Part shown: positions 1 to 27,524 of the stretch, in pieces
Layout of the letters: the number at the start of each line of letters is the position of its first letter
Numbering within the stretch: the stretch's first letter is position 1
Assembly (NCBI GenBank): GCA_001430755.1
Contig: CP013062.1
Location: 570,001 to 602,000 of the forward strand
Reading direction: 5' to 3'
DNA: 32,000 bases
Origin: Candidatus Peribacter riflensis
GTDB lineage: Bacteria > Patescibacteriota > Gracilibacteria > Peribacterales > Peribacteraceae
Made by a program: the position numbers and the translations under genes
The notes under the pieces: generated by a model
Seen by the model: only the letters and a program-made list of their open reading frames with translations
What the model was told of the DNA's origin: nothing
Databases searched by the model: none

Positions 1-1621
1 CGAATCCGCTGATCTGCTCGTCGCGGATCGTGGTCTCGGAGGCATCGAACCGCACAGTGAGCGGGGCGGTTCCGCCGTCGGGATCCATGAGGATCGTCAC
101 GGTGGAGGCGGGCGGCAGCACTTCAACAGTGATGGGCTTGCGCAGAACACGGCCGTCGGGATCCTGCCCGATGAGCCAGAGCGTGTAGACGCCCTCGCGC
201 CGGTACACCGCCTGAACCGACTCCTTCGTCGATCCGACCGTCGTGGCTTCGGGCACCTCCCAGAAGAACTCAATGAGCGGCATGGTCGTACGAGGCTTGA
301 GATCAACGATCACCGGCACTTCGCCACTGATTACGTTGTTCTTCACCTCCGGAGACCCACTAAAGGTGAGATCGGCCAGCTGCAGCTCTTCCGTCACCCG
401 AACCACCTTCGTAATCTTGGCAACCGGACCGGCCTGCGAGCGCAGCTCCGCCGTCACCGGAAAAGCGCCGCGCTGCGTGAAGGTGTGTCCCACCCGCTCG
501 CCCCGCGCCTCGGCCCCGTCTCCGAAACTCCAGAGAACCACGCGAAGCGGCTCGTCGGTCTGCACCCGGAAAACGCCGCCGAACGGAGAAGGCCCGATGA
601 GGTGCTCCGGCTCTGCGAAGAACTCCACCGGGAACGGCAACGGGAGGGAACGGAGGACATCGATGGTCCGCTCATAGGTCTGCTGTGCCTTGGTGACGAG
701 CGTCACCTTCACCGAGACCGGTGTGGGACCCTCCGCGAAGAACGTGTGCACGACATCGAGATTTTTCGTCACCAGGTCCACCTCGCCGTTCCCGTCAAAA
801 TCCCACTCTGCCTGGTCGAGGTCTTCTTTGCGGGGAACGAGGTGCGCGATACTCAGACGTGCCGGCTCATCGAGCACCGGCTGCGCGGGTGCCACCGAGA
901 AAACTGCGTCCGAAATCACCAGACGCCGCGAGAGACGGCGCACATCTCCGCCCTTGAGCGCGATGACGGCCGAAACCGGGAACTGACCCTGACGCTCGTA
1001 GGACGCCGTCACTTCGGGATTGGTGGTCTCGGCATTCATCTTGCCGTCACCCTCAAAATCCCAAATGAACTTTTCGGGGATGAGCTGGCGCCGTGCAAGA
1101 ATCTCCACCGCGGAGCGGACACTGAACGTGATCGAGAGCGGCGCAATAAACTGCTCGGCATTCTCGGGCGTCACGACGGTGATCGTCAGGGGAGGCTCCC
1201 GGCGGATGGCGAACGGCACGGCCACGCTGGCAATGAGCCCCGGAAGAATGACGGCAATGACCTTGATCGCCGCGAGCCGGCGGCGCGGGAGGGTCACCGT
1301 CTCGGCCGAACCGATGCGCAGCAGTGCGAAGATCCCGATGCCGATCAGCACCACCGCCACAATGAGCGCCGCCATCGTGCCAGGAGGAATGAAACGGTCG
1401 TACTCCCCCGTCACATCGGGCAGCACCATAAGAAGGAATGCGGACCAGACAAGGTACGAAATGTAGGGGGTGAAGAGCAGCACGAGAAGAACCCTGCGGA
1501 GCAGGCGGCGGGAAGCCACTGCGGGATCCGCGGTCTTCGGCGCAGGCGCGCTCAGGGGAGCCGCCGCCGGAACCGGAGGAGGGGCAATGCCGTCAACGGG
1601 AGGAACGGGTGGCGTGGTCAT
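1..1621 (-). CDS. PKD-repeat membrane protein (N-terminus complete, C-terminal end runs off the window start)
   Basis: Absent from the ORF track because it has no stop inside the window. Manual minus-strand translation from ATG 1621..1619 stays open to base 1, about 540 codons (MTTPPVPPVDGIAPPPVPAAAP...). It has a Pro-rich N-terminus and three hydrophobic stretches (VLLVLLFTPYISYLVWSAFLLMVL, MAALIVAVVLIGIGIFALL, IKVIAVILPGLIASVAVPFA). These are followed by repeated units with PKD-type signatures (WDFEGDGK, WDFDGNGE, WSFGDGAEARGERVGHTF, APLTVRFDASET). The + strand ORFs 243..677 and 485..1891 are Arg/His-rich antisense shadows. Confidence 0.8.
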   Translation of the reverse strand, partial: MTTPPVPPVDGIAPPPVPAAAPLSAPAPKTADPAVASRRLLRRVLLVLLFTPYISYLVWSAFLLMVLPDVTGEYDRFIPPGTMAALIVAVVLIGIGIFALLRIGSAETVTLPRRRLAAIKVIAVILPGLIASVAVPFAIRREPPLTITVVTPENAEQFIAPLSITFSVRSAVEILARRQLIPEKFIWDFEGDGKMNAETTNPEVTASYERQGQFPVSAVIALKGGDVRRLSRRLVISDAVFSVAPAQPVLDEPARLSIAHLVPRKEDLDQAEWDFDGNGEVDLVTKNLDVVHTFFAEGPTPVSVKVTLVTKAQQTYERTIDVLRSLPLPFPVEFFAEPEHLIGPSPFGGVFRVQTDEPLRVVLWSFGDGAEARGERVGHTFTQRGAFPVTAELRSQAGPVAKITKVVRVTEELQLADLTFSGSPEVKNNVISGEVPVIVDLKPRTTMPLIEFFWEVPEATTVGSTKESVQAVYRREGVYTLWLIGQDPDGRVLRKPITVEVLPPASTVTILMDPDGGTAPLTVRFDASETTIRDEQISGF

Positions 1622-1626
1622 CGCGC

Positions 1627-2640
1627 TCACTCGGTGGGAGCAATCGCAGAGGTTCCCTCCAACAGGGAGCGTAACTGCTCAAGTTTTTCTGGAGAAAGAG
1701 TGGCCCCGGGTTCCTGCTGCACATCTGTGAGACCGAAGAATGACGCAGGGGAAAGCACCTGCGCATCAGCCGGAGGCGTGATGATGGGAGCCGTATCGAA
1801 CTCGCTGAGGTGGGCTGTGAAAGAGCCACTCAGCACCCCCTGTGCCGTCTGCAGGCTCTCGATGGTCCACAGCACGCGGCGCAGGGCGTAGGTCTCGGCG
1901 TCGATCCACATCTCCCCCGTCGCCTGCAAGTTTTCGATGGCACGGGACATGCCCTCCCGATCAATCGTCTCCTGGCGCGCTGCAGCGAGTTGCTCGATGT
2001 ACGCGAGAAGCTTCTCGGAATCCAGAACAACATCGAAGTGGCGCACAGACGCGCCATCGATCGTGGTCACGCCGCGATCTTTCACCACGCGCACCACCTG
2101 TGATTGCGCGCGCAGAATATCCGGCGAGGGCGTCAGGGTTCCGCCGGGAACCGACCCTTCGGCATCGGAAGGGGCCGCAGGAAGGACCCACCACTGATTG
2201 AGGAGCAAGGCGAGCAGCTCCGGCTGGAAGAGGGATTGGTCGGGCTCGGTCACGAGCGACCGGATGCGGAATGTCAGATCCTTACGACCGACGACAATGA
2301 TATCCCCCTCTCCCTGTACGCGGAATGTCTGGCTGCGATCGCCGCCGGGAGCGACGAGTGCATCGGCCGTGATCTCCAGCTGCAACGAATCACCTGCATC
2401 CTGCAGGACTCCTGCGAGCTCCACTGTCCCCGAGGCAGGCAGAGAGCCTCCTTCGAGGCGGAACTGGCCGTCCACGGCAAGACGCACAGACTGCAGAACA
2501 CGGCTCTTCTGCGCCGCCATGCGCAGCACTTCTTCGGCTTCAGGACCGGGAGGAAGTGCAGGCGATCCCCGCAGGAACAGGTAGAGCGGAACGCCCACCA
2601 GAATGAGGACGAACAGGAGAGAGAGGAAGAAACGTTTCAT
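1627..2640 (-). CDS. hypothetical N-terminally anchored envelope protein
   Basis: The track ORF 1627..2856 is trimmed to the internal ATG at 2640. That start gives MKRFFLSLLFVLILVGVPLYLFL, a signal or anchor helix. The upstream 72 codons look like non-coding read-through. The stop at 1627 lies 5 nt before the ATG of the PKD gene at 1621, so the two are probably co-transcribed. No family motif recognised. Confidence 0.7.
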   Translation of the reverse strand: MKRFFLSLLFVLILVGVPLYLFLRGSPALPPGPEAEEVLRMAAQKSRVLQSVRLAVDGQFRLEGGSLPASGTVELAGVLQDAGDSLQLEITADALVAPGGDRSQTFRVQGEGDIIVVGRKDLTFRIRSLVTEPDQSLFQPELLALLLNQWWVLPAAPSDAEGSVPGGTLTPSPDILRAQSQVVRVVKDRGVTTIDGASVRHFDVVLDSEKLLAYIEQLAAARQETIDREGMSRAIENLQATGEMWIDAETYALRRVLWTIESLQTAQGVLSGSFTAHLSEFDTAPIITPPADAQVLSPASFFGLTDVQQEPGATLSPEKLEQLRSLLEGTSAIAPTE

Positions 2641-2734
2641 AGCGTGAGAGTGCGGAAATTTATGACAGTATGCGCGGGGGACAAAGAGAAGACAATTCCC
2701 TGAGTGGACGATGCATGGGGAAGTATGCGCAATC

Positions 2735-3610
2735 TCACCGTCGGGTGCGCACCCGACGGGCGAAAAGATCGCTGGGTTCCTCCAATGTAAACCCGACTGT
2801 GCGGCGCGCGCTGGCACGCATATCCGCGCGCACTTCGAGCAGTATGACCTGCCCACGATTGAGCCGCAGGGGCGAGGCGAGCACGAACGGCGCGAGATCC
2901 CCCCGCAGGGACGGGAGCGAGGCGAGCACCTGCCCGCGCGACGTCTGCAGCATCAGATTCTGCAGATCCGTTCCGCGAGCCGATCCGTCATTCGTGAGCG
3001 TGATGGATTCGACGACCTGGTCGAAATCGCCCTGAGCCGTCAGGCGCAGGCGGGCGACGGAGCGATGGGCTCCGTAGCGGATGCGCGAGAGCACAGGCAG
3101 GAATTCCACAGACACGCTGCCCTGTGCGATGCCGGTGGTCGTGCGTGTCACAGTGACCGGCGCGGGAGAGAACGTGACCCGGTAACCGCCGGCATCAACG
3201 TGTGCGGGAACGTCGATGGTGAGACGGTGTTCCCCGGCCACAGCGGCATCCGCGCCAAAATCCGCAGCGACGGAAAGGGTACGCGTGCCGCATGCGGGAA
3301 CAATCCATGCGGGGTACAGAGACAACGGAACACTCCCGTCCGTCGAAGAGAGCGACCGACCGCGCGAAATTCTGCGCCCATCGCTCAGCACGTAGACAGA
3401 GGAGAAATCATCGGGATCCCCCATTCCGCCGTGCGTCACCGTGATGCCATGCACCGTGGCGTCACCGTCGCAGGGGGCAGTGAAGCGGAGCGAGAGCATC
3501 TCCACCCGCTGGGCTCCGGGAGGAACAGAGGCCGACGGCAACGCCACCACCTGCACGCGGAGCGTGAGGGGCGAGAGGAGCGTGAGCAGCAGAACAGGGA
3601 TCGTCAGCAC
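2735..3610 (-). CDS. hypothetical secreted protein
   Basis: 291-aa ORF with a GTG start at 3610 and a hydrophobic N-terminus (MLTIPVLLLTLLSPLTL). The composition is beta-rich and protein-like. It is the first gene of the minus-strand run 3610 to 1. TATAGT at 3622..3617 lies 6 nt upstream of the start. No family recognised. Confidence 0.65.
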   Translation of the reverse strand: MLTIPVLLLTLLSPLTLRVQVVALPSASVPPGAQRVEMLSLRFTAPCDGDATVHGITVTHGGMGDPDDFSSVYVLSDGRRISRGRSLSSTDGSVPLSLYPAWIVPACGTRTLSVAADFGADAAVAGEHRLTIDVPAHVDAGGYRVTFSPAPVTVTRTTTGIAQGSVSVEFLPVLSRIRYGAHRSVARLRLTAQGDFDQVVESITLTNDGSARGTDLQNLMLQTSRGQVLASLPSLRGDLAPFVLASPLRLNRGQVILLEVRADMRASARRTVGFTLEEPSDLFARRVRTRR

Positions 3611-3666
3611 CGATACACTATACAGAGATCTGCAGAAGAGCGGACCGCGGAGAGAATCACCAGAGC

Positions 3667-6600
3667 ATGAGTACGATGGCAGTGCAACTCTTCACAATTC
3701 TCTCTCATTCCACACCTGCTATAGTCCTCTGCAAGATGTTCCGCACTGCCTTCACAGAGCTCGCCCTGGGCACATTTCTGACACTCGTGCTCACCGGTAT
3801 TCTCGTGGAGCAGAACCGGATGGCTCCGCTCCCCGCGCCTATGCTCTACGGGGCGCTCACAGCCCAAACCAGCTCAGACCCGCCGTACGACCCGCCCCCC
3901 GATCTGGGCGCCTGCTGTTCCTCGTTCGACGGAACCTGCCTCTCAGATTCAACCGATGTCGGCGCGTGCGCAGGCATGGGCGGTATGTTCTATCCATGGA
4001 CGTACTGCAGCAATGCGTGTTCGAGTACCATCTCGTACCCTCCCTGTCCCCCCAGCTGCGACGACGGCGATCCCTGCACCGATGACTGGTGCGAGTTCGG
4101 TATCTGCCAGCACACCAGCATTACCGGCTGTTGCAGATCCAATGCCGAGTGCACTTCCAGCGATCCCTGCTGGGCCACCGAATGCATCGCCAATCAGTGC
4201 TTCGGCATGAACCTGTGCGAGATGGGCGCCTGCTGCCAGCCAGATGGATCCTGCGCACAGACACCGCAACTGTACTGCAGCGGCTCACATTACACATTCG
4301 CGGATTGCTCCATCTGTCCCTCCTCTTCCAGTGTCCCCAGTATGTGCGTGCCGCCGGACTGTGATGACGACGACCCCTGCACCAGCGATGCCTGCATTCC
4401 CGCCGCCGAGGGAGGAGAGATGTGCGACCACATCCCCACCTCCTGCCCCTCCTCCTATTCTTCATCCTCTTCAAGACCCTCACTCGGCTCTTCATCTTCT
4501 ACATCTTCAAGCTCCTCATACCCCTCCTCTTCGCGGTCCTCCTCTTCCTCACAACCCCCCCCTTCCTCACAACCCTCTTCCTCGCGATCCTCCTCTTTCT
4601 CCGGCCCCCCGCCGCCACCGAGCTCCAGCGCCGGCAGCACGCCCTCCTCGCAGCGCAGCACAACCAGCAACGCTTCCAGCAGCTCTGCCACCAATCTGTG
4701 CGAATGGTGCAAGCAGACATTTGGGGAAGATACGGGGTCCCTGTCGTGCTGCGAGGCATCGTGCAACGGATGCCCTCCGGGTACGACGATCGGCGATCCG
4801 CGCGAGAGCGGCTGCGAAACCGACGGCAGCGGCTGCGGCTGCCCCACCTGCAGCGCGACCCCCTCGTCTTCGTCCGCCCCCTCTGCCCCCTCTTCCTCCA
4901 GCACCCCGCCGCCGCCGAGCAGCTCCTCTGTGCATAGCAGCTCTTCCTCCTCTTCCGAGGGACCGGTCTCGTGCTGCTTCGGATCAACGTGCATGGATGA
5001 CGTCTATCCGTTCATCTGCTCGCTCTTCGGCTCTCCGGCGGAAGACCCTGTCTTCGGGCCGGGCAATGACATCTGCGGTGTCGCGACGTGCGGAGGGGGG
5101 GGATCCAGTTCGTCTTCCCCCTCCTCATTCCGTTCTTCTTCCAGCTCATCATCCGAACCGCCCCCTCCGCCTTCCTCATCGTCCTCTTCTTCTTCCTCCT
5201 CCGTCGTTCCCCCGCCTTCATCCTCTTCGAGCACGTCACAAGGCTGCACGGACGCAGAAAAACGGTCGTGCTGTAACACCATCGGCATCCTGCACTGGTG
5301 CAATGACAACGTCTGTCCCGAGGACTGCCGCAAGAAAGGCGTCGAGCCCTACCCCAGCAACGGCGTGTGCGGGGCGAACGGATTCCCGCAGGCCATGCTG
5401 CAGCGGTTCTTCGCTCAGCTCTTGAGCCTCTCTCCCTCCAGCTGCCCCGTGCCCAATTACGCCTGCTGCGGCAAAGATAACCCGACGGAGTGTGTGGTCG
5501 TTACGGCCCAGAGTCAGTGTGAGGGCGGATCGGGAACACCGGTTTCCGCGGGAACAGTCGCCTGCACCGCCGAGCAGTCTGCGGCGTGCGGCACTCCCAG
5601 CTGCGACTTGGGCTGCTGGGGGGGGACTGAATCGGAAATGGCCGCCTCCTGCTACCCCGACCACAACGAAATCAAAGACGCCACCCCCTCTCAGCCGAAT
5701 TACAAGTGCTGCTGCCCGAAGAAACAGAACTGCTGCCGCATGCTTTCCACGCCCACCGGCGGCACCCCTCCCTACGGGCGTTCCTACACCTGCACGCGTG
5801 AGGGGCCCACACAGTGCGCCATGCTCGATGACATCGGGGGCACGATCTACCATCCGGGAACAATCATTTCCGAAGACTGCAACAGTAAGTGCAAAGCCCC
5901 GGATCCTCCGGGGTGGTGCTGCACGCCAGACGGCCCCAAGAAGATGAAGAAGGAGGATTGCAAAGCAGAATTCTCGACTGCGGCGACGGCGCCCGACGAT
6001 TTCTGCCCCCGCGCCTGTTGTCACGGCTCGATCCCAGACGGATGCGCCGTGCGCTCGTGGAAGTACTGCGATACGCTCGACGGCGACTTCAAGTTCGGTG
6101 CAACCGCCTGCGGACCGGAGACGTGCAAAGACAAGAATGAAGTAGCCTGCTGCCCCCTTGAGTCAGGCAGTGGCGGGGCATGGAAGTGCCAGACATTCCC
6201 CAAAAATGAAGAGGAGAGCAAGTGTCAGACTGGAACGTCTTTCGGTGACATCTGTCCCCAGGAGAATCCCGCATCTCCCCTCTGCGGCCCGCCCCCCGAG
6301 CGCCTCGTGGCCTGCTGCAGTACCGAAGGAACCTGCTGGCAGATGTATCTAAAGGAAGGCGACAGCTGCGAAACCAAGAATGGGGTCAATACGTACCACC
6401 CCGATCCTTTCGATCCCCCGAGCGACTGCAAGGCCGGCCCAGCGGGACAGCCGGGGATCAATTGCGTGCCAGGGACCCCGCCCAAGGGCGCCTGCTGTTT
6501 CAGCAACAAGCCCTGCGCGCAGCTGACATCGAAGGAATGCGGGGATGGAGGCGGGGCGTACAAGGGAGCGGGTGCTTCGTGCTCCCCCGACCCCTGCGGC

Positions 6601-9600
6601 AACACCGTGGCTTGCTGCACGCGACCGGACGAGGGCACCGCTTGGTCCTGCACGCCAAAACTAGAATCACAGTGCAAAGATGGCACGAATACGCGCAATC
6701 TCGGCAAAGCGGCGCAGTGCCCGGCAGACTGGGAGCAGCAATGTGCAGTCGAAAAAATCGCCTGCTGTCTGAAGAGTCCATCAGGCGGAAAGTCCTGCGG
6801 CACGGTGAAGAAATCGGAGGCTGATTCACTCTGCGCGTCGACATTCGCCGAGGGTGCGTCGCCGAGCTGCAGCGCCGAGCAGGAGGCCACCTGCGCACCC
6901 ATCGCCTGCTGCCCCAAGGAAGGCTGTCGTATCGAAAGTTGTACAGCAATGACGGCGTTGCAGTGCGGCGCAGAGGGGTGTGAGGCGAAAGGCGCCGGCT
7001 CCACCTGCACGCCAGACCCCTGTGCTCCTCCCAAGGCCTGCTGCGGCTCGGACAGGCAGAATCCTAGTTGCACCGCACGCTCTGCCTGCGGTGAGGGTGA
7101 AACGGAAATTGAGGGCAAATGCCCGGCGGCGGGCAGTGATGAAATGCGTGAAAAGTGCAGTATGGTCGCCTGCTGTCAGGAGAAGGACGGCGAGCTGACC
7201 GGTGTCTGCGCCCTCGGAGAATCCTGCAACAGCAATAACGAACGGCCGGCAGTCTCGTCGGACGGCAAGCCCGTCACCTCCTGCTCGCCCAATCCGTGCG
7301 AAACGCCCCCAAAGAAAGTTGCCTGCTGCCCCAAGGGCAGCGAGACGTGTGCGATGGATCAGTCGCGTGAAGACTGTGACGCAACCCAGACCATCAGCGA
7401 TAACAATTCGTGTGACGGCATCACCTGTGTGAAGCAGTCCGCCTGCTGCAAAGAAGAAGCCGACGGCTCGTTCAGCTGCCCCGCCAAGCCCGCAGAAGGG
7501 AGCTGCCCCGCAGGAACGAAACCGATGGACATGGCGGAGTGCAAAGAGAAGGGCTGTCCGGAACCCAAGTTCGCCTGCTGCCTCCTCGTCGAAGGCAGCG
7601 CAGATGTCTACACATGCACCACGAATTTCACACGTGATGAGTGCATAGCAAAAAGGGGGTTAACCAAGCCCAACTACTGCCCATCGGGATTGGCTGAAGT
7701 AAAAAAGTACTGCGGCGGTGATTCGGTCGTGTGCTGCGACAAGAACGGCGCCTGCATCGAAGACCCCAGCGATCCGTCGACGGAGTGTCTTGAGGGAACG
7801 ATAGAATCAAGCAATGATCGATGCTCAGAAGAGAAAAAGGCCGAATGCAAGAAAAAGGGCGGCTCCTGTTGCAAGCTGGACGCTGCCAAGAAACCGACCT
7901 GCAGAGAGAAGCCGGCAGCCGGGTGCAGTGCCGATGAGCGGTCCTACGAACTCGACGTTGCAGGCTGCCAGACGGAGTGTAAGGGGCAGGTCAGCTGCTG
8001 CGGCGGTGATTGGGAGAAGGCAACCTGCGAGACGAGAGAAGCGGTGAAGTGCAAGGAGGACGAACGCGAGGTGAATGTGGACAAGTGTCCCGAGGATCAG
8101 GAAGCAATTGAAAAGCTGTGCTCCGGGAACATTGGCTGTTGTTTCCCTCCCCCAGCCCCCCAGTACCCGTGGACCTGCGAGTCTAGCGTCTATACCAAAA
8201 CGGAGTGCGAACGGTACAAGGGGACGCCGGTGAACTACTGCCCCTCGAGCGTGGAGGATATCCAGAAGGTCTGCAACGGAAAGAAGGGTTCCGTCATCTG
8301 CTGCGGCGGCGAAGACGGCAAGGAGTGCCTGCTCAACCCTGCGGATCCGGATAGTGAGTGTACAGCGGGATCCATCGAACATGATGACAGAAACCTGAAC
8401 GTGTGCCCGGCCTCGAAGAAGAGTGCCTGCGCAAAAGAGAAGGTCAACTGCTGCTCCGTAGACGAAAACTTTCTACTCACAGGGGAGTGTCAATCCAACG
8501 TGCCGGCGCAAGATTGTCCGTCTGACCGGCGGGTCAACCAGTGCAGCAAGACTGCCTGTCAGAAGCGCGTAGCCTGCTGCGTTAAAGACGCCCCGGGCTG
8601 TGTCGAGAATATCCCGGCAAATCAGTCGTCGTACTTCTGCCAGGCAGGCAAAATCTCAGAGCAGAACAATTGCAACGAATTCGTGATGAGAGATAGAGGG
8701 AGAACAACGAATCTCTGCGAGCAGGGGCCATGGTCATGCTGCACGCAGCCCGGGCGCTCGCTGGCCTGCGTCGATCTGCAGAACGTTGGGCAAGTCACCG
8801 AATGCAGCAAGCAAGGCTTCGTTCCCATCATCGGCGCCACCTGTAAAGACAATCCGAATCCCTGTCAGATTCTTATGAAAAAGCGGCACGCCTGCTGCTC
8901 GCCCAAGACGGGTCCGGATGGCCGACCGTGGATGGCCTGCGAGGAGCAGGATAACGGCACCCCCGTGGTCATGACTCCGTCCACCCTCCTTGCAGAGACC
9001 ACCACAGGTGACGATGGAGGCAGTGGCGAGAGTTGTTACCTCGATCTGCCCAGCTGCGTCGCCAGCTGCCCGGTCGGTCCGATCGAAGAGCCATCGTCAT
9101 CGGATGGCAACAATGAAAGCTCTGCCGGAGGTGGTGGCATACCGGGTGGGGGTGGGGGCGGAGGTGGAGGTGGCAGCGCTGGCGGTGGAACCAGTGGAGG
9201 TGGAGCCAGCCATCCCTCGGGTGGCGACGAGAGTTCCGCCGGAGGCGGCGGAGGGAGTGACGGCAGCTCCGGGAGCGGTGGTGGCGGTGGTGGCAGCAGT
9301 GCCGGAGGAGGCACGCCGGGTGGGGGTGGAGGAGGTGGCGGTGGAACGACGAGTGACTCGGGCTCCTCGGGTTCGCAGGGCTCGGTTCCAGCGTCTTCGG
9401 CGGGCGGCGGAGCCAGCCATCCCTCGGGTGGCGACGAGAGTTCCGCCGGAGGCGGCGGAGGGAGTGATGGAAGCTCTGGAAGTGGAGGCGGGGGTGGAGG
9501 TGGTGGCAGCGCCGGTGGTGGAGGCGGTAGCGCCGGAGGCAGTGATGGAAGCTCTGGAAGTGATGGGGGTGGCAGCAGTGGCGGAGGAGGCGGCAGTGAA

Positions 9601-10356
9601 GGAAGTGAGGGCAGTGAAGGGAGTGCGAAGGGCGGTGGAGGAGGCGGAGGTGGAGGAGGTGGAGGAGGTGGGAGCGAAGGCTCGACCGGCAGCGCCGGAT
9701 CATCCGGCTCAGTTCCCCCGCCCCCCGCCTCCTCCGCAGGCGGCACAAGCAGCGAGGGGGAATCCAGTTCCAAGCCGCCCGCGAAGGGCAACTGCTGCAT
9801 CGAGGGCGCAGACTACGGCATCTGCTTTGCCGACATCAGTGCACAGACATGCGAAGACAGCGCCATGGGCGGAACATTCATGGGCGATTCGCAGTGCATC
9901 GCCTCGCCCTCGACCGGTGCCAACTGCGGACCGACCGGCGGAAGCAGCTCTTCGGGAGGAGACCCCTCCTCGCAGGAGAGCAGCGCAGCCACCCCCTGCG
10001 GCAACGGACTGCCGGATGAGGGAGAGCAGTGCGATCTGGGTATTTATAACAGCAATACCCCGAATGCCCTGTGCCGCACAGACTGCACGTCCGCCCGCTG
10101 CGGCGACGGCATTGTGGATACCAACCCATCGGGAAGGCCGAAGGAGCGCTGTGACGACGACGGACGCAACAGTGATACGGAGCCGGGAGCCTGCAAGACC
10201 AACTGCAAGTACCGCAACACCTACTTCACCCTCGGCCAGTGGCTGCAGAATCTCCAGCTCTACGCCATAGACGGGGTACCGGTGCCGGATGCCCCTGAGA
10301 CGAACGAGAACACGCAGTTCCTCGTCATCGGCGCACTGACGTTCATCCTCATGTAG
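3667..10356 (+). CDS. giant secreted cysteine-rich repeat protein (2229 aa)
   Basis: A single uninterrupted 6.7-kb ORF. The N-terminal hydrophobic segment is LALGTFLTLVLTGILV, and an alternative start is ATG 3736 (MFRTAF...). There are 32 Cys-Cys doublets, mostly in the context (V/I/G)ACC. Ser/Pro-rich linkers lie at about 4440..4680, 4860..4960 and 5100..5230, and a Gly/Ser tract at about 9100..9720. Two CDDxDPCTxDxC motifs lie near the N-terminus. A CGNG...GEQCD...CGDG...CDDDG unit lies near the C-terminus. The protein ends in a short hydrophobic tail. Confidence 0.9.
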   Translation: MSTMAVQLFTILSHSTPAIVLCKMFRTAFTELALGTFLTLVLTGILVEQNRMAPLPAPMLYGALTAQTSSDPPYDPPPDLGACCSSFDGTCLSDSTDVGACAGMGGMFYPWTYCSNACSSTISYPPCPPSCDDGDPCTDDWCEFGICQHTSITGCCRSNAECTSSDPCWATECIANQCFGMNLCEMGACCQPDGSCAQTPQLYCSGSHYTFADCSICPSSSSVPSMCVPPDCDDDDPCTSDACIPAAEGGEMCDHIPTSCPSSYSSSSSRPSLGSSSSTSSSSSYPSSSRSSSSSQPPPSSQPSSSRSSSFSGPPPPPSSSAGSTPSSQRSTTSNASSSSATNLCEWCKQTFGEDTGSLSCCEASCNGCPPGTTIGDPRESGCETDGSGCGCPTCSATPSSSSAPSAPSSSSTPPPPSSSSVHSSSSSSSEGPVSCCFGSTCMDDVYPFICSLFGSPAEDPVFGPGNDICGVATCGGGGSSSSSPSSFRSSSSSSSEPPPPPSSSSSSSSSSVVPPPSSSSSTSQGCTDAEKRSCCNTIGILHWCNDNVCPEDCRKKGVEPYPSNGVCGANGFPQAMLQRFFAQLLSLSPSSCPVPNYACCGKDNPTECVVVTAQSQCEGGSGTPVSAGTVACTAEQSAACGTPSCDLGCWGGTESEMAASCYPDHNEIKDATPSQPNYKCCCPKKQNCCRMLSTPTGGTPPYGRSYTCTREGPTQCAMLDDIGGTIYHPGTIISEDCNSKCKAPDPPGWCCTPDGPKKMKKEDCKAEFSTAATAPDDFCPRACCHGSIPDGCAVRSWKYCDTLDGDFKFGATACGPETCKDKNEVACCPLESGSGGAWKCQTFPKNEEESKCQTGTSFGDICPQENPASPLCGPPPERLVACCSTEGTCWQMYLKEGDSCETKNGVNTYHPDPFDPPSDCKAGPAGQPGINCVPGTPPKGACCFSNKPCAQLTSKECGDGGGAYKGAGASCSPDPCGNTVACCTRPDEGTAWSCTPKLESQCKDGTNTRNLGKAAQCPADWEQQCAVEKIACCLKSPSGGKSCGTVKKSEADSLCASTFAEGASPSCSAEQEATCAPIACCPKEGCRIESCTAMTALQCGAEGCEAKGAGSTCTPDPCAPPKACCGSDRQNPSCTARSACGEGETEIEGKCPAAGSDEMREKCSMVACCQEKDGELTGVCALGESCNSNNERPAVSSDGKPVTSCSPNPCETPPKKVACCPKGSETCAMDQSREDCDATQTISDNNSCDGITCVKQSACCKEEADGSFSCPAKPAEGSCPAGTKPMDMAECKEKGCPEPKFACCLLVEGSADVYTCTTNFTRDECIAKRGLTKPNYCPSGLAEVKKYCGGDSVVCCDKNGACIEDPSDPSTECLEGTIESSNDRCSEEKKAECKKKGGSCCKLDAAKKPTCREKPAAGCSADERSYELDVAGCQTECKGQVSCCGGDWEKATCETREAVKCKEDEREVNVDKCPEDQEAIEKLCSGNIGCCFPPPAPQYPWTCESSVYTKTECERYKGTPVNYCPSSVEDIQKVCNGKKGSVICCGGEDGKECLLNPADPDSECTAGSIEHDDRNLNVCPASKKSACAKEKVNCCSVDENFLLTGECQSNVPAQDCPSDRRVNQCSKTACQKRVACCVKDAPGCVENIPANQSSYFCQAGKISEQNNCNEFVMRDRGRTTNLCEQGPWSCCTQPGRSLACVDLQNVGQVTECSKQGFVPIIGATCKDNPNPCQILMKKRHACCSPKTGPDGRPWMACEEQDNGTPVVMTPSTLLAETTTGDDGGSGESCYLDLPSCVASCPVGPIEEPSSSDGNNESSAGGGGIPGGGGGGGGGGSAGGGTSGGGASHPSGGDESSAGGGGGSDGSSGSGGGGGGSSAGGGTPGGGGGGGGGTTSDSGSSGSQGSVPASSAGGGASHPSGGDESSAGGGGGSDGSSGSGGGGGGGGSAGGGGGSAGGSDGSSGSDGGGSSGGGGGSEGSEGSEGSAKGGGGGGGGGGGGGGSEGSTGSAGSSGSVPPPPASSAGGTSSEGESSSKPPAKGNCCIEGADYGICFADISAQTCEDSAMGGTFMGDSQCIASPSTGANCGPTGGSSSSGGDPSSQESSAATPCGNGLPDEGEQCDLGIYNSNTPNALCRTDCTSARCGDGIVDTNPSGRPKERCDDDGRNSDTEPGACKTNCKYRNTYFTLGQWLQNLQLYAIDGVPVPDAPETNENTQFLVIGALTFILM
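9202..9467. repeat. in-frame direct duplication inside the Gly/Ser tract of the giant gene
   Basis: The 59-bp string ggagccagccatccctcgggtggcgacgagagttccgccggaggcggcggagggagtga occurs identically at 9202..9260 and 9409..9467. The offset is 207 bp, or 69 codons. Degenerate similarity continues for about 25 bp after each copy. A further 22-bp exact repeat, agtgatggaagctctggaagtg, occurs at 9463..9484 and 9541..9562. Confidence 0.9.
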
Positions 10357-13050: not shown

Positions 13051-14196
13051 ATGCAGTATCCGACACGCAGCACCCTCGTGAGTGCCCTCGCCGCCTGCTC
13101 GTTCTTCCTCGCCTCGCCGGCCCTCGCCGCCGGAACGGTGACGATCGTGCAGCAGAGCCCCATTGATGTCCTCGGGGAATACACGCTCACGCTCCCGAAC
13201 GGCACGCAAACCACCATCCACGAGCAGGAGCGCAAGGAAATCACGTCAGCCGCTGCCGGAACGTACCATCTGCGGATCGTGCCGCCTGCAGACGCCAAAG
13301 TGACGACCACGGTGACGAAGAATGGCATCGACCAGACTGCCACCGCCGAGAAAGACGTCAGCTTCACCATCGTGGATACCGAGCAGGTGCTGGTGACGAT
13401 CAGCTATCGCTACGACGGGACCGTGGAGGTGCAGAGCAATCCGGAAGGCGCTTCGTTCGAGCTGCTCGGACCCAATGACCTCCGGGTGACTGGCACCAGC
13501 CCCGCCACCTACTCCGGCATGGCTCCGGGTGTCTACCGTGTGACCTTCCACAGAAAGGAAGACTGCAGCCTCGTTTCTCCCATTCAGCGCCAACTCGACG
13601 CGAACAAGACGCTCACCCTCATCGGTGCGTACACCTGCGGTGTCGTCGCTCCGCCCGCCCCTCCGCCGGTCGAACCGGAGGAACCGGTGGCGGATACGAA
13701 TGAAGGACGCACGCTGCGCATCTGGGTGGCCACGCACCAGGCCGAAACGCTGCCGGGCAGCACCGTGCGCACCACGATCACGGTGAAGAACACCGGCACG
13801 CGCACCGTCCACAACCTGGTCATCTCTGCGCAGATCGATCCCGCCATGCTCCAGTGGTCTACCCCCCTCCCGCGCTTCGGCACGGTGAGCGGCGATGTCG
13901 CCTTCTGGGAGGTTCCACAGCTCTACTCCGGCAAGACCTGGTCCGTCACGATGCCCCTCGTCACGAATGCATCCGTACAGCAGGGTGAGCAGAGCGTTGT
14001 CACTGCACGCGTTGCGGCCGATGACCTCGCCGACGGGAGCACAGACACCCTCCTGGCCAAGACAACCGTGGGTGTGACCGGCATGCCGGAGACCGGCTTC
14101 CGCGCCGATGTGATCTTCCTGATCCTGAGCACAATCTTCACCGCAGTCTGCGCCAAGAAAACCGTCCAGCAGCACCTGGCGATGGAGCGAGCCTGA
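13051..14196 (+). CDS. cell-surface protein with a PEGA-like domain, a DUF11-like domain and an MPETG sortase-type sorting signal
   Basis: Signal peptide MQYPTRSTLVSALAACSFFLASPALAAG. A literal PEGA motif is present (VEVQSNPEGASFELLGPN...GVYRVTF). A Pro-rich linker is followed by TVRTTITVKNTGTRTVHNLVISAQI, which is DUF11/CARDB-like. The C-terminus is GMPETG, then a hydrophobic stretch (ADVIFLILSTIFTAVCA), then KK. Confidence 0.85.
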   Translation: MQYPTRSTLVSALAACSFFLASPALAAGTVTIVQQSPIDVLGEYTLTLPNGTQTTIHEQERKEITSAAAGTYHLRIVPPADAKVTTTVTKNGIDQTATAEKDVSFTIVDTEQVLVTISYRYDGTVEVQSNPEGASFELLGPNDLRVTGTSPATYSGMAPGVYRVTFHRKEDCSLVSPIQRQLDANKTLTLIGAYTCGVVAPPAPPPVEPEEPVADTNEGRTLRIWVATHQAETLPGSTVRTTITVKNTGTRTVHNLVISAQIDPAMLQWSTPLPRFGTVSGDVAFWEVPQLYSGKTWSVTMPLVTNASVQQGEQSVVTARVAADDLADGSTDTLLAKTTVGVTGMPETGFRADVIFLILSTIFTAVCAKKTVQQHLAMERA

Positions 14197-14219
14197 AGAA
14201 CAAATAATCTTGGAGCAAT

Positions 14220-14255
14220 CAGGGCGTTCCCGCAGTGCGGGGCGCCCTGTTTCGT
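14220..14255 (+). terminator. rho-independent terminator candidate after the MPETG protein gene
   Basis: cagggcg (14220..14226) pairs with cgccctg (14243..14249). An inner 5-bp stem is cccgc/gcggg around the loop agt. TTTCGT follows. The structure begins 24 nt after the stop at 14196. Confidence 0.5.
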
Positions 14256-14344
14256 ATGGACGGATCACCATGAAGCACGGCACCGGTCCATTGCACCCGA
14301 CCTCAAGGGTAGGCAAGACTATAGGGTCTTTCCTCCATCCTCCC

Positions 14345-15619
14345 ATGCGTGTCCGTTCTGTCCCCCTCCTCGCGGTGCTCTCACTCTGTTTGTTCGCATT
14401 CCCGCATGCTGCGCGCACACAGGCAACGGGAACCATTTCGGTGGAACAGGAGCCTGCCAAAGGGTTCACCGTGCTGGGCAACTGGGTGCTCCTCAAGCCG
14501 GATGGCACCCGCACGACCACGAATGTCCCTTCGCACACCTACGACAGTGCGCCGGCGGGCAAGTATCTGCTCAACATCCTCCCTCCGTCAGGTATGAGCG
14601 TGCAGATCACGCTCACGCTCAACGGCGAGACGCTCATCCTCGATAAGCCGCAAATTTCCTTTCAGCTAGCCGAAGGCAGCGCAGTCACGCTGCACGTCAA
14701 GTACACCCTCGCGTTATCCGGCAAGGTGGGCGTCGATACGTCGCCCCCCGGGTTTCCCTATACCCTCACCGGACCCGACGGCGCCGTCTATACGGGCGTT
14801 TCGCCCGGCTTCTACGATCCCATGCCCGTGGGGCTGTATTCGGTGACATTCGATCCGATCGATGGATGTCCTCCCCTCAGTCAGCAATCGGGGCGCCTGG
14901 TCAAAGACAGCCGCGTCGTCCTCTCGGTACAGATTGCGTGCGACAACCTGCCACAGCTCGACCAGCAACAGGCAGAAGAGAAGGGCCGCCTGTTCGTGAA
15001 AGCCACCATTGATGGTGCCACCGTCATCTTCGATGATGTGCCCATCGATCAGTGGTTCGCCTCGCACGTGCGCCGCGCGCTGGATGCCAAAGTGATGTCC
15101 GGCTACCGCGATGCCGCGGGCAAACCGACCGGGAAATTCGGCCCCTCCGACCCCGTGACCGTGGCGGAGCTGGCCAAGATCGCGCACCGGCTGGCCAGCG
15201 TCGATGAAGCGAGAGACTGGGGAGAGCCGGAGAACGAACGGGCGCGGGGAACCTGGTTCGCCTCGTTCTTCGCCTCGGCGGAAGCGCACGACTGGCTGGT
15301 GTACCTGAACCGCTCGATCGATCCCCTGCGCCCCGTTACGCGCGCCGAAGTTGTGGCCACGTTCCTGCAGGTGCTCGATGTGCCCCGGGAATGGCCGACG
15401 GGCTCACTCTTCCGCGATGTGTCTCGCACGATCCCCTATGCTGACTGTATCGAAACCGCTGCGAATCACAGTCTTGTAGCCGGCTACACCGATGCAGCGG
15501 GCAGCATGACAGGGCTCTTCGGTCCCGCTGACCCGGTGAACAGGGCCGAGATGGCCAAGATGATCTCGGCGGCCATGGAGCTGTACTTGGAAGATACGGC
15601 GTCGTTCCAGCCGGAATGA
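14345..15619 (+). CDS. S-layer-homology (SLH) domain surface protein, N-terminal paralog of the preceding gene
   Basis: The track ORF 14210..15619 is trimmed to ATG 14345, which gives the signal peptide MRVRSVPLLAVLSLCLFAFPHAARTQA. The N-terminal roughly 170 aa align by eye with 13051..14196, for example GTISVEQEP...AGKYLLNILPP against GTVTIVQQSP...AGTYHLRIVPP, and the PEGA-like VDTSPPGFPYTL...GLYSVTF. The C-terminal half has three SLH-type units (FDDVPIDQWFASHVRRALDAKVMSGY...FGPSDPVTVAELAKI; WFASFFASAEAHDWLVY...PLRPVTRAEVVATF; FRDVSRTIPYADCIETAANHSLVAGY...FGPADPVNRAEMAKM). Confidence 0.85.
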   Translation: MRVRSVPLLAVLSLCLFAFPHAARTQATGTISVEQEPAKGFTVLGNWVLLKPDGTRTTTNVPSHTYDSAPAGKYLLNILPPSGMSVQITLTLNGETLILDKPQISFQLAEGSAVTLHVKYTLALSGKVGVDTSPPGFPYTLTGPDGAVYTGVSPGFYDPMPVGLYSVTFDPIDGCPPLSQQSGRLVKDSRVVLSVQIACDNLPQLDQQQAEEKGRLFVKATIDGATVIFDDVPIDQWFASHVRRALDAKVMSGYRDAAGKPTGKFGPSDPVTVAELAKIAHRLASVDEARDWGEPENERARGTWFASFFASAEAHDWLVYLNRSIDPLRPVTRAEVVATFLQVLDVPREWPTGSLFRDVSRTIPYADCIETAANHSLVAGYTDAAGSMTGLFGPADPVNRAEMAKMISAAMELYLEDTASFQPE

Positions 15620-18409: not shown

Positions 18410-18487
<78 letters not shown>

Positions 18488-22175: not shown

Positions 22176-25100
22176 TCATTGGAATGATTCCATGTTCTTC
22201 AGAATCCGCCCATATGCCTTGCTCGACACTGTCCCATCCAGAAGGTTATTGAGGAGCACATGGAGGAACTGCCGGGGATCCTTCGTCTTTTCGTAGAGAG
22301 GCAAGAGTTTTGCGAAGAGATTTTGACGATATTCCGCTGGACCCCACGAGAATGACGAGCGATACGTGGTGAGATCGAGCAGACGATGCAATTCATATGC
22401 ACGAACCTTGCGCAGAAATGCAGCATCATGTTCTTTGGGATGACCACTGAGATTGAGCGGCGTCGAGAGAACAGCAAAACCAAGATCCTGGTCTTCTTTC
22501 GTGAACGCGTCGGTGGGTTCCTGTGTGAGCATGTCCAGGCGACGTATGGTATACGTAAAGGTTTTTCCGTCTTTATCCGCAGAAAAACGGAAGGCATCTG
22601 ATTCCTGTGGAAGCCATACCCCCTTGTTCTCGCGGTGCACACCCATGCTCGGCACGCCGATCTGATCGAGGAATGCAGAAGTGAATTTCACATCGTGCCC
22701 TCCGAGATGTCCCCGAAATTCTCCGGGCGACAACGAGAGCTCCTTCGCGGCTTCATTCCGCTTATACACACCCGGAACATACAACATCTCTGGCATCTGC
22801 TGCGCGCGCTCAACGGCACGATCGTGCATGAGTTGCTGCTCCTGCTCCAACCGATCGCCCTCCGCATGCTCCTGCTCCCACTTTGTCTCCTGTGCATTCA
22901 GTCTCTGTCGCGCTGCACGCTCCGCATTCTGCCGACGATCGATAAGGGTTTTACGTGCCTGTTCCAAGAGACGAGACAATCCGGGTTTGCGCTCAGCTTC
23001 GCGCATGGTGACCGGCTGCAGCAATCCGGGAATGACTTGTAGATTCGTGTTATTGAGTTGCGCAGTTGCTGCTGCCTGTTGCAGAACGAGCACGCGACCG
23101 TTCTCGAGATCCCCGAGAACGTAGGTTGCAAGCACCATGTCATGATTCCCCGGAAGATTGCGTCCCTCGTAGAAGACCGCGCGGAGCGGAAGATGAGGGA
23201 ATCCTTCGGGCAACTTCACACTCGTGAGTTTTCGGCTGACTCGGTGACTCACGCTCCCAGCAGTGAAAACGAGAGTCGGCTCAGATTCCTCGCCAAAGAA
23301 ACCCTCGGTGAGCTGATGATTGAACCGGAACGCCGCACGTCGCTCCCCCACGCGTTTGTCGGACTCGATGAGGTCGATGCCATCGATCGTGATGTGCTCA
23401 AGGCCATTGGCGAGCGTCGTCTGATCCGCACTTGCTCCCAAAAACGCATCGAGCAGCCCCGGTTCACTCTTGATCGATTTTTTGCCCGATGCCGAGCGAA
23501 TGTTATCGGCGGCAGTCGCTGCGTAACTCGTGGGGAAATCGAAATGCGCAATGGCTCCCATGAGCGTGGCATCCTTGGGCCACTTGAGTTCCACGGCATC
23601 CGTGAACGTTTTGATATCGTGCCACTCCTTGCCCTCTGCATTCTGCTGTTCCCCCACATCACGAGGGAGAACGCGCGAAAGACGCATGCGCAACGCCGGA
23701 TCGGCAATGAGTTGTTCCAGCAACGCATCACCTGATGCAAAATTCAGATCCTCGCGCAGGCCAGGAACGCTCCCTGCAGGAACAGTAAGGGGCTCCTTGC
23801 GGTCGACACGGGCTGCAAGTTCTTCAACAAGTCGTTGCACACGGGTTCGTCCCTGCGCATCGACAAGCTGATCCCGTTCAAGAGAATGCAGTGGCGTGCC
23901 GAATGCCGTTTTCGCTCCGAGAGCATGCACGACGTCGGTTAGCACTCCCTGCACACCTCTGTCGCCATCGGGAACCGCCCGGTATTGCTCAAGAGCATCT
24001 ACCGCATGCACATATTCCCGCTCCTTGCGGTGCTCGAGGTACACGACCAACGCCTCGCGCAGGGCGCGACGAACATTCACAGATGAAATATCAGGCGTGC
24101 GCGCCGGAGCCAGACTAAATCCGCCCACGCGCCCCGCCCTGATATCGTCGACCGAGAGCGCCCCGTCCGAGAGCTGCCAGAGCCGCACGGCATAGTACGG
24201 CAGCAGTACGGACCTGAAATCCTCTTTGAAGAAGGCGTCCACATTCTTGGGATGCATTCCCGTGGGATAGAGTGCATCGATGAGTTCCGGTACGTTCGCA
24301 AGCTCGTCGTGCAGTATGCAAAAGAGCACCTTCTCGCGGATATTTTTCTTCTGTTCGCCGGACTTGCTCGTGATCGGATCTGTCAGCATCAATTCCGATG
24401 TCGTCGCAAGCATCCCGTACTTCTTTTCTCCGATCGTATGTTCGACATCGATTTTTGCGAGCAACCATGCCGGGCAACGCTCAAGGAAAGTTCGATCGGC
24501 CTTTTGATCAATGCCATAGACAAGCGTCTCGATCGCCACCTCCGCCGCAAGAACCGGAAGCGACGCACGTAGTGGAGCCGTTCCCTTCCGTATCGTACTC
24601 AGAGCGCGCAGGATCATCGGCAACTCAACGATGTCTCCTCCGATACGCACAATCTGGGCAATCTCGTGCCCCTGCTCTGCGGCCTTTAGCTCCGCAACGT
24701 TCACGGTGCACACCGTTCCTCCGTCCTTGTACGTGAATCGCGCATTCTGATCGGGAGGATCTGCCTCGAATCCCGCCAGCTTGAGATCGGCGATGATCAG
24801 CTTTTCGCGCTGTTCGATGATGCGGTCCATCGCTCCCAGCTCCTTCACGTCTTCGTAGATGCGATAGATCTGCAACGCAGTGAGACCGGTCGTCAGAATT
24901 GCAGAAGGCTTCAGTAGATTCCACGTTGTAGCGGGAAGACGACTGATACCGCGAATGATTGCAGGAGCTTTGCGGAGCAGGTAGAGAGTCGCACCCGTCG
25001 CCGAGCCACCGACAATCCACGGCAGCAGTGCGCCCACAGCCGCAGTGATTCCCAACGCCTTGAGCAAAGTCATCCAGCCCTGTTTGATCGCATTGATCTC

Positions 25101-26909: not shown

Positions 26910-27524
26910 CTAGTGGGGCGCGTTAGGGGGGAAGAAGTCCGCAGCCCCGCCGGTGGGCGGAGGTGGCAGAGGAAGGTTGGGAGCTCCGGTCGGCCCCGGC
27001 ATGGGATTGGAGGGAATAATCCCCCCTTGAGGTATTGCCTCGAATGCACCACCCGTCGTTGGGGCAACAGTGTCAGCGGCGGCAGCGGCTCCCTCCATAG
27101 GATTGGGGACGGCTACAAGACCGCCCAACTGATCCCACGCGAGGTAGGCTCCGCCCGCCACGAGTGCTGCAAGGATGAGGAGCGTGAGCATGGGATGTCG
27201 TTTCATCGTGTCCCATGTCGCCTGCGTAGCGCGACCCGGGAGCTTGAGGACCTTCTCGTACCACCGCTCTTTGCGGGCGATCTCCTGCTTGTTGAGCTTG
27301 AGATGTGTGATGAGAGCATCCACCTGCCCGTTGAGCTTGGGGTCCCGCTTGCGCAGAGCTTCCACCAGCTTCTCGCGCTTCTCGACCGAATCCAGTGCCG
27401 ACTCGAATTCCTCAATCTTCTTGAAGCCCAGCTTCTGCGCGTAATCCACCATCTCTTCGCGGTTTCTGAAAACCGGAAAAGCGGCGGGCTGCTCGCGGCC
27501 GGCGGAGGGAGTGGCAGTGGCCAT
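26910..27524 (-). CDS. hypothetical single-pass membrane protein with a Pro/Gly-rich C-terminal tail
   Basis: 204 aa. It has a charged helical N-terminal half and a TM helix (MLTLLILAALVAGGAYLAW). The tail is PNPMEGAAAAADTV...PNLPLPPPPTGGAADFFPPNAPH. The ATG at 27524 shares its A with the TAA stop of the upstream gene (TAATG). Its own stop lies 6 nt before the 1575-aa gene ATG. Confidence 0.7.
   Translation of the reverse strand: MATATPSAGREQPAAFPVFRNREEMVDYAQKLGFKKIEEFESALDSVEKREKLVEALRKRDPKLNGQVDALITHLKLNKQEIARKERWYEKVLKLPGRATQATWDTMKRHPMLTLLILAALVAGGAYLAWDQLGGLVAVPNPMEGAAAAADTVAPTTGGAFEAIPQGGIIPSNPMPGPTGAPNLPLPPPPTGGAADFFPPNAPH

Follow-up and report, generated by a model that had tools for sequence, protein, structure and literature searches.

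Bacteria of the candidate phyla radiation (CPR) are thought to be attached to other cells, and their attachment molecules are almost unknown. In the genome of Candidatus Peribacter riflensis, 20 cysteine-rich proteins contain 19% of all cysteines; as a group, most of them were predicted to carry a signal peptide and to be extracellular, and roles in rigidity and attachment had been proposed for such large extracellular proteins (Anantharaman et al. 2016, PeerJ 4:e1607; PMC4736985). The present analysis concerns a stretch of 32,000 nucleotides (nt) of this organism (contig CP013062.1, positions 570,001 to 602,000 of the forward strand), an ultra-small groundwater bacterium; this stretch is referred to as the window, and the giant cysteine-rich protein that it encodes. 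This protein is literally one of the published set, with the same supposed extracellular location and roles in rigidity and attachment; its Table S4 entry is RIFOXYC2_FULL_PER-ii_58_32_522, labelled 'lipoprotein', with 219 Cys (9.84%) in 2226 amino acids (aa). Neither the protein nor its cysteine richness nor the adhesin idea is thus new, as all are already found in PMC4736985, and the gain made here is incremental. That paper does not describe the six-Cys module opened by a Cys-Cys (CC) doublet, the grammar of the array or its link to the repeat that we call the GACC repeat. New are the definition of the module, its descent from an uncurated six-Cys repeat, the picture of unit subtypes and their turnover, and a confident fold model without significant match in the PDB.

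Further described families resemble parts of the protein. The Myxococcus-type disulfide repeat TIGR02232 (myxo_disulf_rpt) shares the CGNG/CGDG...D motifs of the C-terminal region (aa 2111-2180), but the match of 18.6 bits (E 0.0012) lies below the cut-off of 20.8, is confined to this C-terminal domain outside the six-Cys array, and was not obtained in the scan with the whole protein. Two N-terminal motifs of the type CDDG(D)PCT.D.C (aa 130-152 and 232-255) recall the Dictyostelium CTDC family PF00526, and the same motif stands beside canonical GACC repeats in another protein (P0004, see below). With 19.6 bits when the whole protein was scanned and 25.2 bits when the N-terminal fragment was used, however, the cut-off of 27 was not reached, and the motif is unrelated to the CC-opened units.

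Translation from the first ATG of the open reading frame (ORF; 3667..10356, +) proceeded without stop over 2229 aa and yielded 219 Cys (9.8%) and 32 CC doublets. ORF, length and doublets were as given in the initial annotation, which had estimated around 200 cysteines, and the four example peptides quoted there are all present in the translation. The core of the protein is a regular array of 21 CC-opened modules of 40-64 aa, with the spacing CC-x4-13-C-x5-12-C-x8-19(31)-C-x3-14-C. Exactly six Cys are found in 20 of the 21 modules, and the remaining one (aa 1079) has eight, with one extra Cys each in loop 1 and loop 3. The real and regular module with nearly always six Cys was therefore correctly recognized, as was the high divergence between units outside the cysteines; the count of about 20 consecutive units likewise stood, whereas the proposed bounds (5890-8950) have to be moved by about 120 nt at both ends to 6010-9069, the spacing ranges are somewhat wider than first given, and the unit size exceeds the initial 40-55 aa. 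Of the 32 doublets, 17 are immediately preceded by Ala, and 20 have Val, Ile or Gly one position further towards the N-terminus. Directly upstream of the array, a unit at nt 5911-6012 (aa 751) has only four Cys and lacks positions 3 and 6; its counterpart in a paralogue is also a four-Cys unit. The joint absence weakly suggests a bond between C3 and C6.

The regularity was evaluated against 20,000 shuffles. Counted alone, the CC doublets exceed chance only weakly, both within the array (21 compared to 15.7 expected, p=0.086) and in the whole protein (32-33 compared to 21.5, p=0.008). Exactly six Cys, in turn, were counted in 19 of 20 CC-to-CC intervals, and the maximum in any of the shuffles was 6. 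The six-Cys periodicity is consequently far above chance. CxC and CxxC spacings were completely absent, with approximately 26 expected. At the DNA level the array contains neither tandem repeats nor long direct repeats, and only imperfect matches of 24-29 nt around a GCC-TGC-TGC motif were detected. The units must therefore be old and diverged, and the assembly is neither collapsed nor chimeric.

No model for the unit was found in Pfam and NCBIfam, which were scanned with the whole protein, fragments of it, 17 diverged units and five carriers of the canonical repeat described in the following. These carriers (P0001-P0005; Ca. Eisenbacteria, Planctomycetota and metagenomic bacteria) were obtained by a homology search with the array and contain long tandem arrays of a regular 37-aa repeat with the consensus GACCFEDGSCSVLTEADCAAAGGTYQGDGTTCDPNPC. 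It can be written as GACCxxDGSCxVxTxxxCxxxGGxYQGDxTxCxPNPC, with the frame CC-x5-C-x7-C-x13-C-x4-C. Carriers of the repeat are labelled 'hypothetical protein' in the sources, and the domains flanking it are the type IX secretion system (T9SS) C-terminal sorting domain, FlgD-Ig, PEGA, M12 metalloprotease, Dicty_CTDC and GC-type dockerin. Word-indexed protein searches proved insensitive in this case (5, 16 and 3 matches). An exhaustive phmmer search with the array against 1.84 billion representatives yielded 209 proteins at E<=1e-3, 50 of them at E<=1e-10, and almost all of the 209 align via one single unit, aa 941-977. In approximately 160 retrieved proteins we counted 1224 canonical repeats, of which 1121 have all six Cys and the remainder are truncated alignments.

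A hidden Markov model (HMM) built from 63 canonical repeats was run along the window protein. Unit 941-977 matched with 37 bits (E 2.3e-13), the units at aa 187, 783, 1080, 882 and 599 with 3.5-11 bits, and all others were non-significant. Comparing a profile of the 17 most diverged units with 62 canonical repeats by hhalign gave E 5.7e-5 and a probability of 66%. The order and number of the cysteines in the canonical frame (CC, C, C, C, C) are reproduced by 20 of the 21 array units; the spacing is exact in unit 941-977 only and near-exact in units 784 and 1081, while the others have longer loops. Also shared are the opening by a small residue, Ala, Cys and Cys, and the head-to-tail arrangement, which in the window protein lies between terminal hydrophobic segments and in the canonical carriers occurs in exported proteins with a T9SS domain or dockerin. 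On the other hand, neither the GG-x-[YF]-x-G nor the P-[ND]-P-C motif is left in about 15 of the 21 window units. With loops 1-3 times longer and a unit length of 40-64 aa, compared to 37, these units are individually undetectable and split into subtypes conserved within Peribacter only. The window units thus descend from an extracellular repeat that is widespread but uncurated, from which they have diverged with expansion of their loops; their membership is clear for one unit, weak for five and, for the rest, indicated by Cys frame and context. The initial annotation, which had recommended a Pfam search, could name no domain family for the module; this holds as far as Pfam and NCBIfam models go, but the module is not an orphan. 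Sequence searches of the PDB with the array and with canonical repeats returned nothing, no paper naming the GACC repeat was found in the literature, and scans of genome and metagenome contigs revealed no close relatives of the array.

Two blocks of three units each were modelled with AlphaFold2, using a 21-row alignment of non-overlapping three-unit blocks from the window protein and P0001-P0005. The mean predicted local distance difference test score (pLDDT) was 86.3 for aa 941-1078 and 79.5 for aa 1354-1488, which belongs to the lineage-specific half of the array. In both models every unit shows essentially the same order of elements, beta-beta-alpha-beta-alpha: strand 1 carries the CC doublet, strand 2 lies at the third Cys, a short helix ends near the fourth, strand 3 precedes the fifth, and a second helix ends at the sixth Cys. 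Predicted template modelling scores (pTM) of 0.47-0.55 fit beads with undefined mutual orientation. As the modelled unit has almost no hydrophobic core, its cysteines most likely hold it together, presumably in three disulfides; and as the doublet belongs to strand 1, one of its side chains points to each face, so that two separate elements can be stapled. Pairing partners could not be deduced from correlated Cys loss across the 1224 canonical repeats, because no repeat has lost a Cys pair. Foldseek searches with both models against the PDB and with the first model against viral structures gave no match at E<=1e-3.

The best two matches of the exhaustive search, P0006 and P0007, differ in kind from all others. 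P0006 (2384 aa, 253 Cys, 38 CC doublets) has 26 consecutive six-Cys units and is encoded in the same gene order as in the window, namely PKD protein, two hypothetical genes, giant gene, purL, DUF11, SLH and murC, and is therefore the positional orthologue from another Peribacter. P0007 (1564 aa, 155 Cys) is the Ca. P. riflensis paralogue PeribacterA2_0112 at a separate locus, whose length and Cys count are those of gene _109 in Table S4 of PMC4736985. All three proteins end in a common C-terminal cassette consisting of a CC unit, CGNG/CGDG acidic repeats, the motif YRNT-F-T..Q..Q.LQ and a hydrophobic tail, and the N-terminal motif M(F/W)R..FTEL.LGTFLT.VLTGIL is common to the window protein and P0006 only. 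Within the irregular Cys-rich region, unit 535 aligns with unit 334 of P0007 with a score of 217. In the array, units 828, 883, 983, 1033, 1169 and 1220 have clear counterparts in orthologue or paralogue with about 50% identity outside the cysteines, one such conserved subtype being CC..P....W.C......C..G.N...LG.A..CP..W...C. Scores against P0006 and P0007 were 100-177 for units 828-1220 and 40-70 for units 1260-1691.

The matched units are not collinear between the orthologues. Their identity is 26% overall and 53% in the C-terminal 230 aa; the adjacent purL reaches 79% and the neighbouring envelope proteins 53-66%. The low overall identity is mainly due to the gain, loss and reordering of whole units. 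The individual subtypes look constrained. This pattern is compatible with diversifying selection, as initially supposed for the units, but does not demonstrate it. The orthologue divergence is saturated for dN/dS, with purL only 79% identical at the protein level, and the strain variants of the paralogue differ by 1-2 residues and are therefore too similar to be informative on selection.

The published gene call, which is also that of NCBI, starts three codons further in at nt 3676 and gives 2226 aa. From this start, length and Cys count are identical to those of _522, which the gene table of PMC4736985 places at 573762..580442 (+) between genes 521, 523 (purL) and 524; the published coordinates of all four genes exceed those in the window by a constant 570086. 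The exact 2226-aa product is encoded on CP013064.1 and two other contigs, that makes three complete genomes, each >1 Mb. Another in-frame ATG at nt 3736 (M24, MFRTAFTEL...) is preceded at a distance of 10 nt by the 12-nt element CTGCTATAGTC, which is conserved at the orthologous locus (window 3709-3738, L082 4989-5012). The element holds a TATAGT hexamer resembling a -10 box, and a scan for consensus promoters found nothing. This ATG may be the true start, with a near-leaderless mRNA and a more ordinary signal peptide.

Only two hydrophobic stretches are present in the protein, one at each terminus. Between them, the head contains two canonical-like units with a Dicty_CTDC-like motif, below threshold, after each; irregular Cys-rich segments then alternate with three Ser/Pro-rich linkers upstream of the 21-unit array. 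Within the gene, appreciable DNA tandem repeats (periods 9-54) are confined to the Gly/Ser-rich linker that follows the array. From other assemblies, nothing but C-terminal fragments was obtained, for example P0178 (163 aa, 100% identical, 9 contigs); metagenome assemblies therefore probably break at this linker, which would account for the small number of full-length relatives in the databases.

Several known export and anchoring signals were considered and rejected. The protein ends in ...APETNENTQFLVIGALTFILM, with neither a conserved LPXTG nor a basic end, and hence carries no sortase signal; its APETNEN motif is not kept in the orthologue (APPVNEN). Class III signals of type IV pilins have G or A at -1, F at +1 and E at +5. 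The sequence A-FTELALGTF (nt 3733-3760) recalls their G-FTLIEL; its Glu, however, occupies +3, in the orthologue -1 is Thr, and no N_methyl/TIGR02532 match was obtained at E up to 10. AIVLC is a poor lipobox, so a lipoprotein was rejected as well, and so was a reading as thionin.

On balance, we consider the protein to be probably a disulfide-stapled, exported and membrane-tethered stalk of the beads-on-a-string type, whose unit subtypes form attachment surfaces of a putatively symbiotic bacterium. Its anatomy, the homology to the canonical repeat, the architecture conserved in orthologue and paralogue and the confidently modelled modules are what this proposal is built on. The N-terminal hydrophobic segment, from which we infer export, would direct the protein out of the cell, and the conserved C-terminal hydrophobic tail would hold it at the membrane. 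Between both termini, about 30 CC-opened modules, the three Ser/Pro-rich linkers and the long Gly/Ser-rich linker would form the chain, each module of approximately 37-60 aa being held by six cysteines as three disulfides. These would be made by DsbB, encoded elsewhere in the genome: the annotation in PMC4736985 lists one disulfide-bond-formation protein, dsbB (gene 272), as well as a thioredoxin-like protein (gene 139) and two sortases. The oxidative-folding capacity initially postulated for the organism is accordingly found in the genome annotation, but nothing of it in the window, where genes for thiol oxidoreductases, DsbB and sortases are absent. The stapled chain of beads would give a long stalk resisting protease and shear, whose distinct unit subtypes would be displayed so as to attach to another cell or a surface, and its repertoire may be remodelled between related strains by gain, loss and reordering of whole units. 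The extracellular fibre or adhesin suggested at the outset therefore remains plausible and agrees with the proposal of the genome authors (PMC4736985).

Several points weigh against the adhesive stalk. Export, the disulfides and binding are deductions. There is a Glu within the N-terminal segment, whose true start codon is also uncertain; at the other end, the tail has just 12-14 residues and no basic cluster of the kind usual in sorting signals. The habitat is anoxic groundwater and there is no respiratory chain, which makes the route for re-oxidation of DsbB questionable. Finally, most units match the canonical repeat by Cys frame only, with a profile-profile probability of just the 66% given above. 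Going beyond the single protein, it is conceivable, and for the time being speculative, that the CC-opened six-Cys unit represents a large undescribed extracellular domain family with its own small disulfide-stapled fold, for which the PDB has no counterpart, and which in the episymbiotic CPR genus Peribacter was expanded into conserved subtypes shuffled between strains, giving a rapidly remodelled host-attachment fibre. If true, such a fibre would be a candidate host-range determinant in CPR bacteria.

Among the other explanations, the one that survives best, though we regard it as improbable, is a passive spacer or coat of the envelope, that is, an S-layer or cell-wall-zone element or a phage decoy without specific partner. 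Canonical repeats elsewhere indeed behave as spacers between a functional head and an anchor, the window protein has long low-complexity linkers, and envelope genes lie nearby. A mere spacer would not readily account for subtypes whose non-Cys residues (W, N, LG, CP..W) are about 50% identical across orthologue and paralogue, which argues for unit-specific surfaces, nor for a repertoire that turns over fast next to neighbours 53-79% identical, as is typical of interaction proteins.

We regard it as even less likely that the cysteines are reduced in the anoxic aquifer and that the protein binds metals or sulfide minerals, or forms reversible intermolecular bonds, as a thiol- or metal-binding surface protein. 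The strictly even count of six near-invariant cysteines per unit argues against this, as do the missing CxC and CxxC spacings, which are classic for metal binding, the homologous repeats in secreted proteins of T9SS and dockerin type from other phyla, the compact modules modelled confidently without ligand and the presence of dsbB in the genome. The anoxic habitat and fermentative CPR lifestyle (PMC4736985) would nevertheless suit reduced thiols, surface attachment is itself named by the genome authors as a possible role of the cysteines (PMC4736985), and the window is without thiol oxidoreductase gene.

A multi-headed array of protease inhibitors, with Kunitz- or pacifastin-like units protecting the cell or acting on a host protease, is very unlikely. 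Arrays of Kunitz/BPTI domains in eukaryotic extracellular proteins such as bikunin and boophilin likewise consist of modules of about 50 aa, which have six Cys each and an alpha+beta mini-fold and are strung like beads, and the top Foldseek PDB matches of the second model, all non-significant, were boophilin 2ody_E (E 0.17), bikunin 1bik, SmCI 4bd9_B and ixolaris 6nan, with 2ody_E also among the matches of the first model. With E values of 0.17-9, a template modelling score (TM-score) of 0.2-0.38 and a root mean square deviation >5 A, however, these matches do not establish a relationship, and Pfam gave no Kunitz or pacifastin match at E up to 10. Kunitz domains have the spacing C-x8-C-x15-C-x7-C-x12-C-x3-C; the window units differ from it and from the spacing of pacifastin. 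Kunitz/BPTI was consequently rejected (best E 0.17, TM-score at most 0.38, no Pfam match, different spacing), as was pacifastin, for which no structure appeared among the Foldseek PDB matches either. The Kunitz resemblance is a loose likeness among small three-disulfide alpha+beta modules and implies no membership. Structure-only pacifastin-like six-Cys domains were recently reported in CPR and myxobacterial genomes (PMC13388995, 2026), but the CPR genomes concerned have 35-49.5% GC, compared to 58% here.

An artefact, be it a reading frame without coding function in GC-rich DNA or a repeat region that became chimeric or collapsed during assembly, is effectively refuted: high GC does produce many spurious long ORFs in the window, the Gly-rich linker has short DNA tandem repeats and other assemblies give only C-terminal fragments, yet the identical product on three complete genomes >1 Mb, the syntenic orthologue of like architecture, a module array free of DNA repeats and a Cys periodicity impossible by chance leave nothing of the assembly fault that the initial annotation had named as a possible refutation.

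Peribacter proteomes are unusually rich in cysteine, to which the window protein and its relatives contribute a sizeable part. With its frame, consensus, predicted fold and relatives, the defined bead is a tractable module for expression, structure solution and searches. Secreted proteins with the GACC repeat number at least in the hundreds and come from several phyla. As neither Pfam nor NCBIfam has an entry for the repeat, many surface proteins now called 'hypothetical' would be annotated by a curated model. The features of the window protein are compiled in Table 1.

Table 1. Features of the giant cysteine-rich protein and its gene (nt positions refer to the window).
Feature	Position (nt)	Strand	Basis
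Giant cysteine-rich protein gene, Ca. Peribacter riflensis _522	3676..10356	+	Coordinates, length and Cys count as in Tables S2/S4 of PMC4736985; alternative starts 3667, 3736
N-terminal hydrophobic segment KMFRTAFTELALGTFLTLVLTGILV (aa ~24-47), putative signal peptide or signal anchor	3733..3807	+	One of two hydrophobic windows; orthologue P0006: MWRSTFTELVLGTFLTVVLTGIL
N-terminal canonical-like CC unit, aa 81-118, GACCSSFDGTCLS...GGMFY	3907..4020	+	Weak match to canonical-repeat HMM
Dicty_CTDC-like Cys/Asp motif 1 (CDDGDPCTDDWC...)	4054..4122	+	PF00526, 25.2 bits, cut-off 27
N-terminal canonical-like CC unit, aa 187-217	4225..4317	+	Canonical-repeat HMM, 11.3 bits, E 2.4e-5
Dicty_CTDC-like Cys/Asp motif 2 (CDDDDPCTSDAC...)	4360..4431	+	Second stretch of the PF00526 match
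Ser/Pro-rich Cys-free linker 1, aa 261-344	4447..4698	+	Composition; short DNA tandem repeat
Ser/Pro-rich Cys-free linker 2, aa 396-435	4852..4971	+	Composition
Ser/Pro-rich Cys-free linker 3, aa 476-526	5092..5244	+	Composition and DNA repeat scan
Irregular Cys-rich region, 3-9 Cys per CC-opened unit (four in the unit 5911-6012)	5245..6009	+	Segments conserved in paralogue P0007
Regular array of 21 CC-opened modules, aa 782-1801	6010..9069	+	Unit table, shuffle test, AlphaFold of two 3-unit blocks
Unit aa 941-977, GACCFSNKPCAQLTSKECGDGGGAYKGAGASCSPDPC, sole clear canonical 'GACC...PNPC' copy	6487..6597	+	HMM 37 bits, E 2.3e-13
Lineage-specific half of the array, units aa 1260-1691	7438..8886	+	No clear P0006/P0007 counterparts; old internal duplication 1304~1491, 1356~1545
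Gly/Ser-rich Cys-free linker, 241 aa (aa 1802-2042; 114 Gly, 58 Ser)	9070..9792	+	Composition
C-terminal CC unit, aa 2041-2087	9787..9927	+	Conserved in P0006, score 201
Myxococcus-type cysteine-rich acidic repeats (CGNG...C...CGDG..D), aa 2111-2180	9997..10206	+	TIGR02232, 18.6 bits, sub-threshold; conserved in P0006/P0007
Conserved C-terminal segment YRNTYFTLGQWLQNLQLY... with hydrophobic tail FLVIGALTFILM (nt 10318-10353), putative membrane anchor/sorting signal	10210..10353	+	Second hydrophobic window; conserved in P0006/P0007

GC-skew excursions of -0.25 (4000-5000) and +0.25 (9000-10000) coincide with the Ser-rich (TCC/TCT) and Gly-rich (GGN) linkers; they are compositional and unrelated to replication. 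The window protein has no entry in the clustered protein collection that was searched. Among the other products of the window, LepA is 91-93% identical to that of Ca. Peribacteraceae genomes.

Neighbouring genes encode envelope proteins with PKD, DUF11 (with an MPETG sortase signal) and SLH domains. The PKD protein (1-1621, -), two unannotated genes with signal-like N-termini (1627-2640 and 2735-3610, both -) and the DUF11 and SLH genes form a small cell-envelope neighbourhood around purL. In the 381-aa DUF11/CLIPPER protein (13051-14196, +), for which a weak PEGA-like match was obtained, MPETG is followed by a hydrophobic stretch and a terminal KK. This is a cell-wall sorting signal of the sortase type, from which it seems that the organism uses xPETG, and the APETNEN... 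tail of the giant protein resembles it, without basic end and unconserved. The SLH protein (14210-15619, +) and the product of the DUF11 gene before it have N-terminal parts that look like paralogues (GT.T..Q.P...F.VLG...L..P.GT.TT).

Many long ORFs that are antisense or overlapping (for example 485-1891, 2711-3670 and 8990-10270, all +) are spurious by-products of 58-64% GC; such ORFs, in window 1-3700 and elsewhere, cover real genes on the other strand or in another frame and have no family matches. A 1575-aa protein (22176-26903, -) with only 5 Cys and no Pfam match looks Glu/Leu/Gln-rich by eye, and two small unannotated genes (26910-27524 and 27524-27922) lie next to it on the same strand. 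The only Rfam/ARAGORN match in the window is a tRNA-Met (CAT) at 18410-18486 (-).

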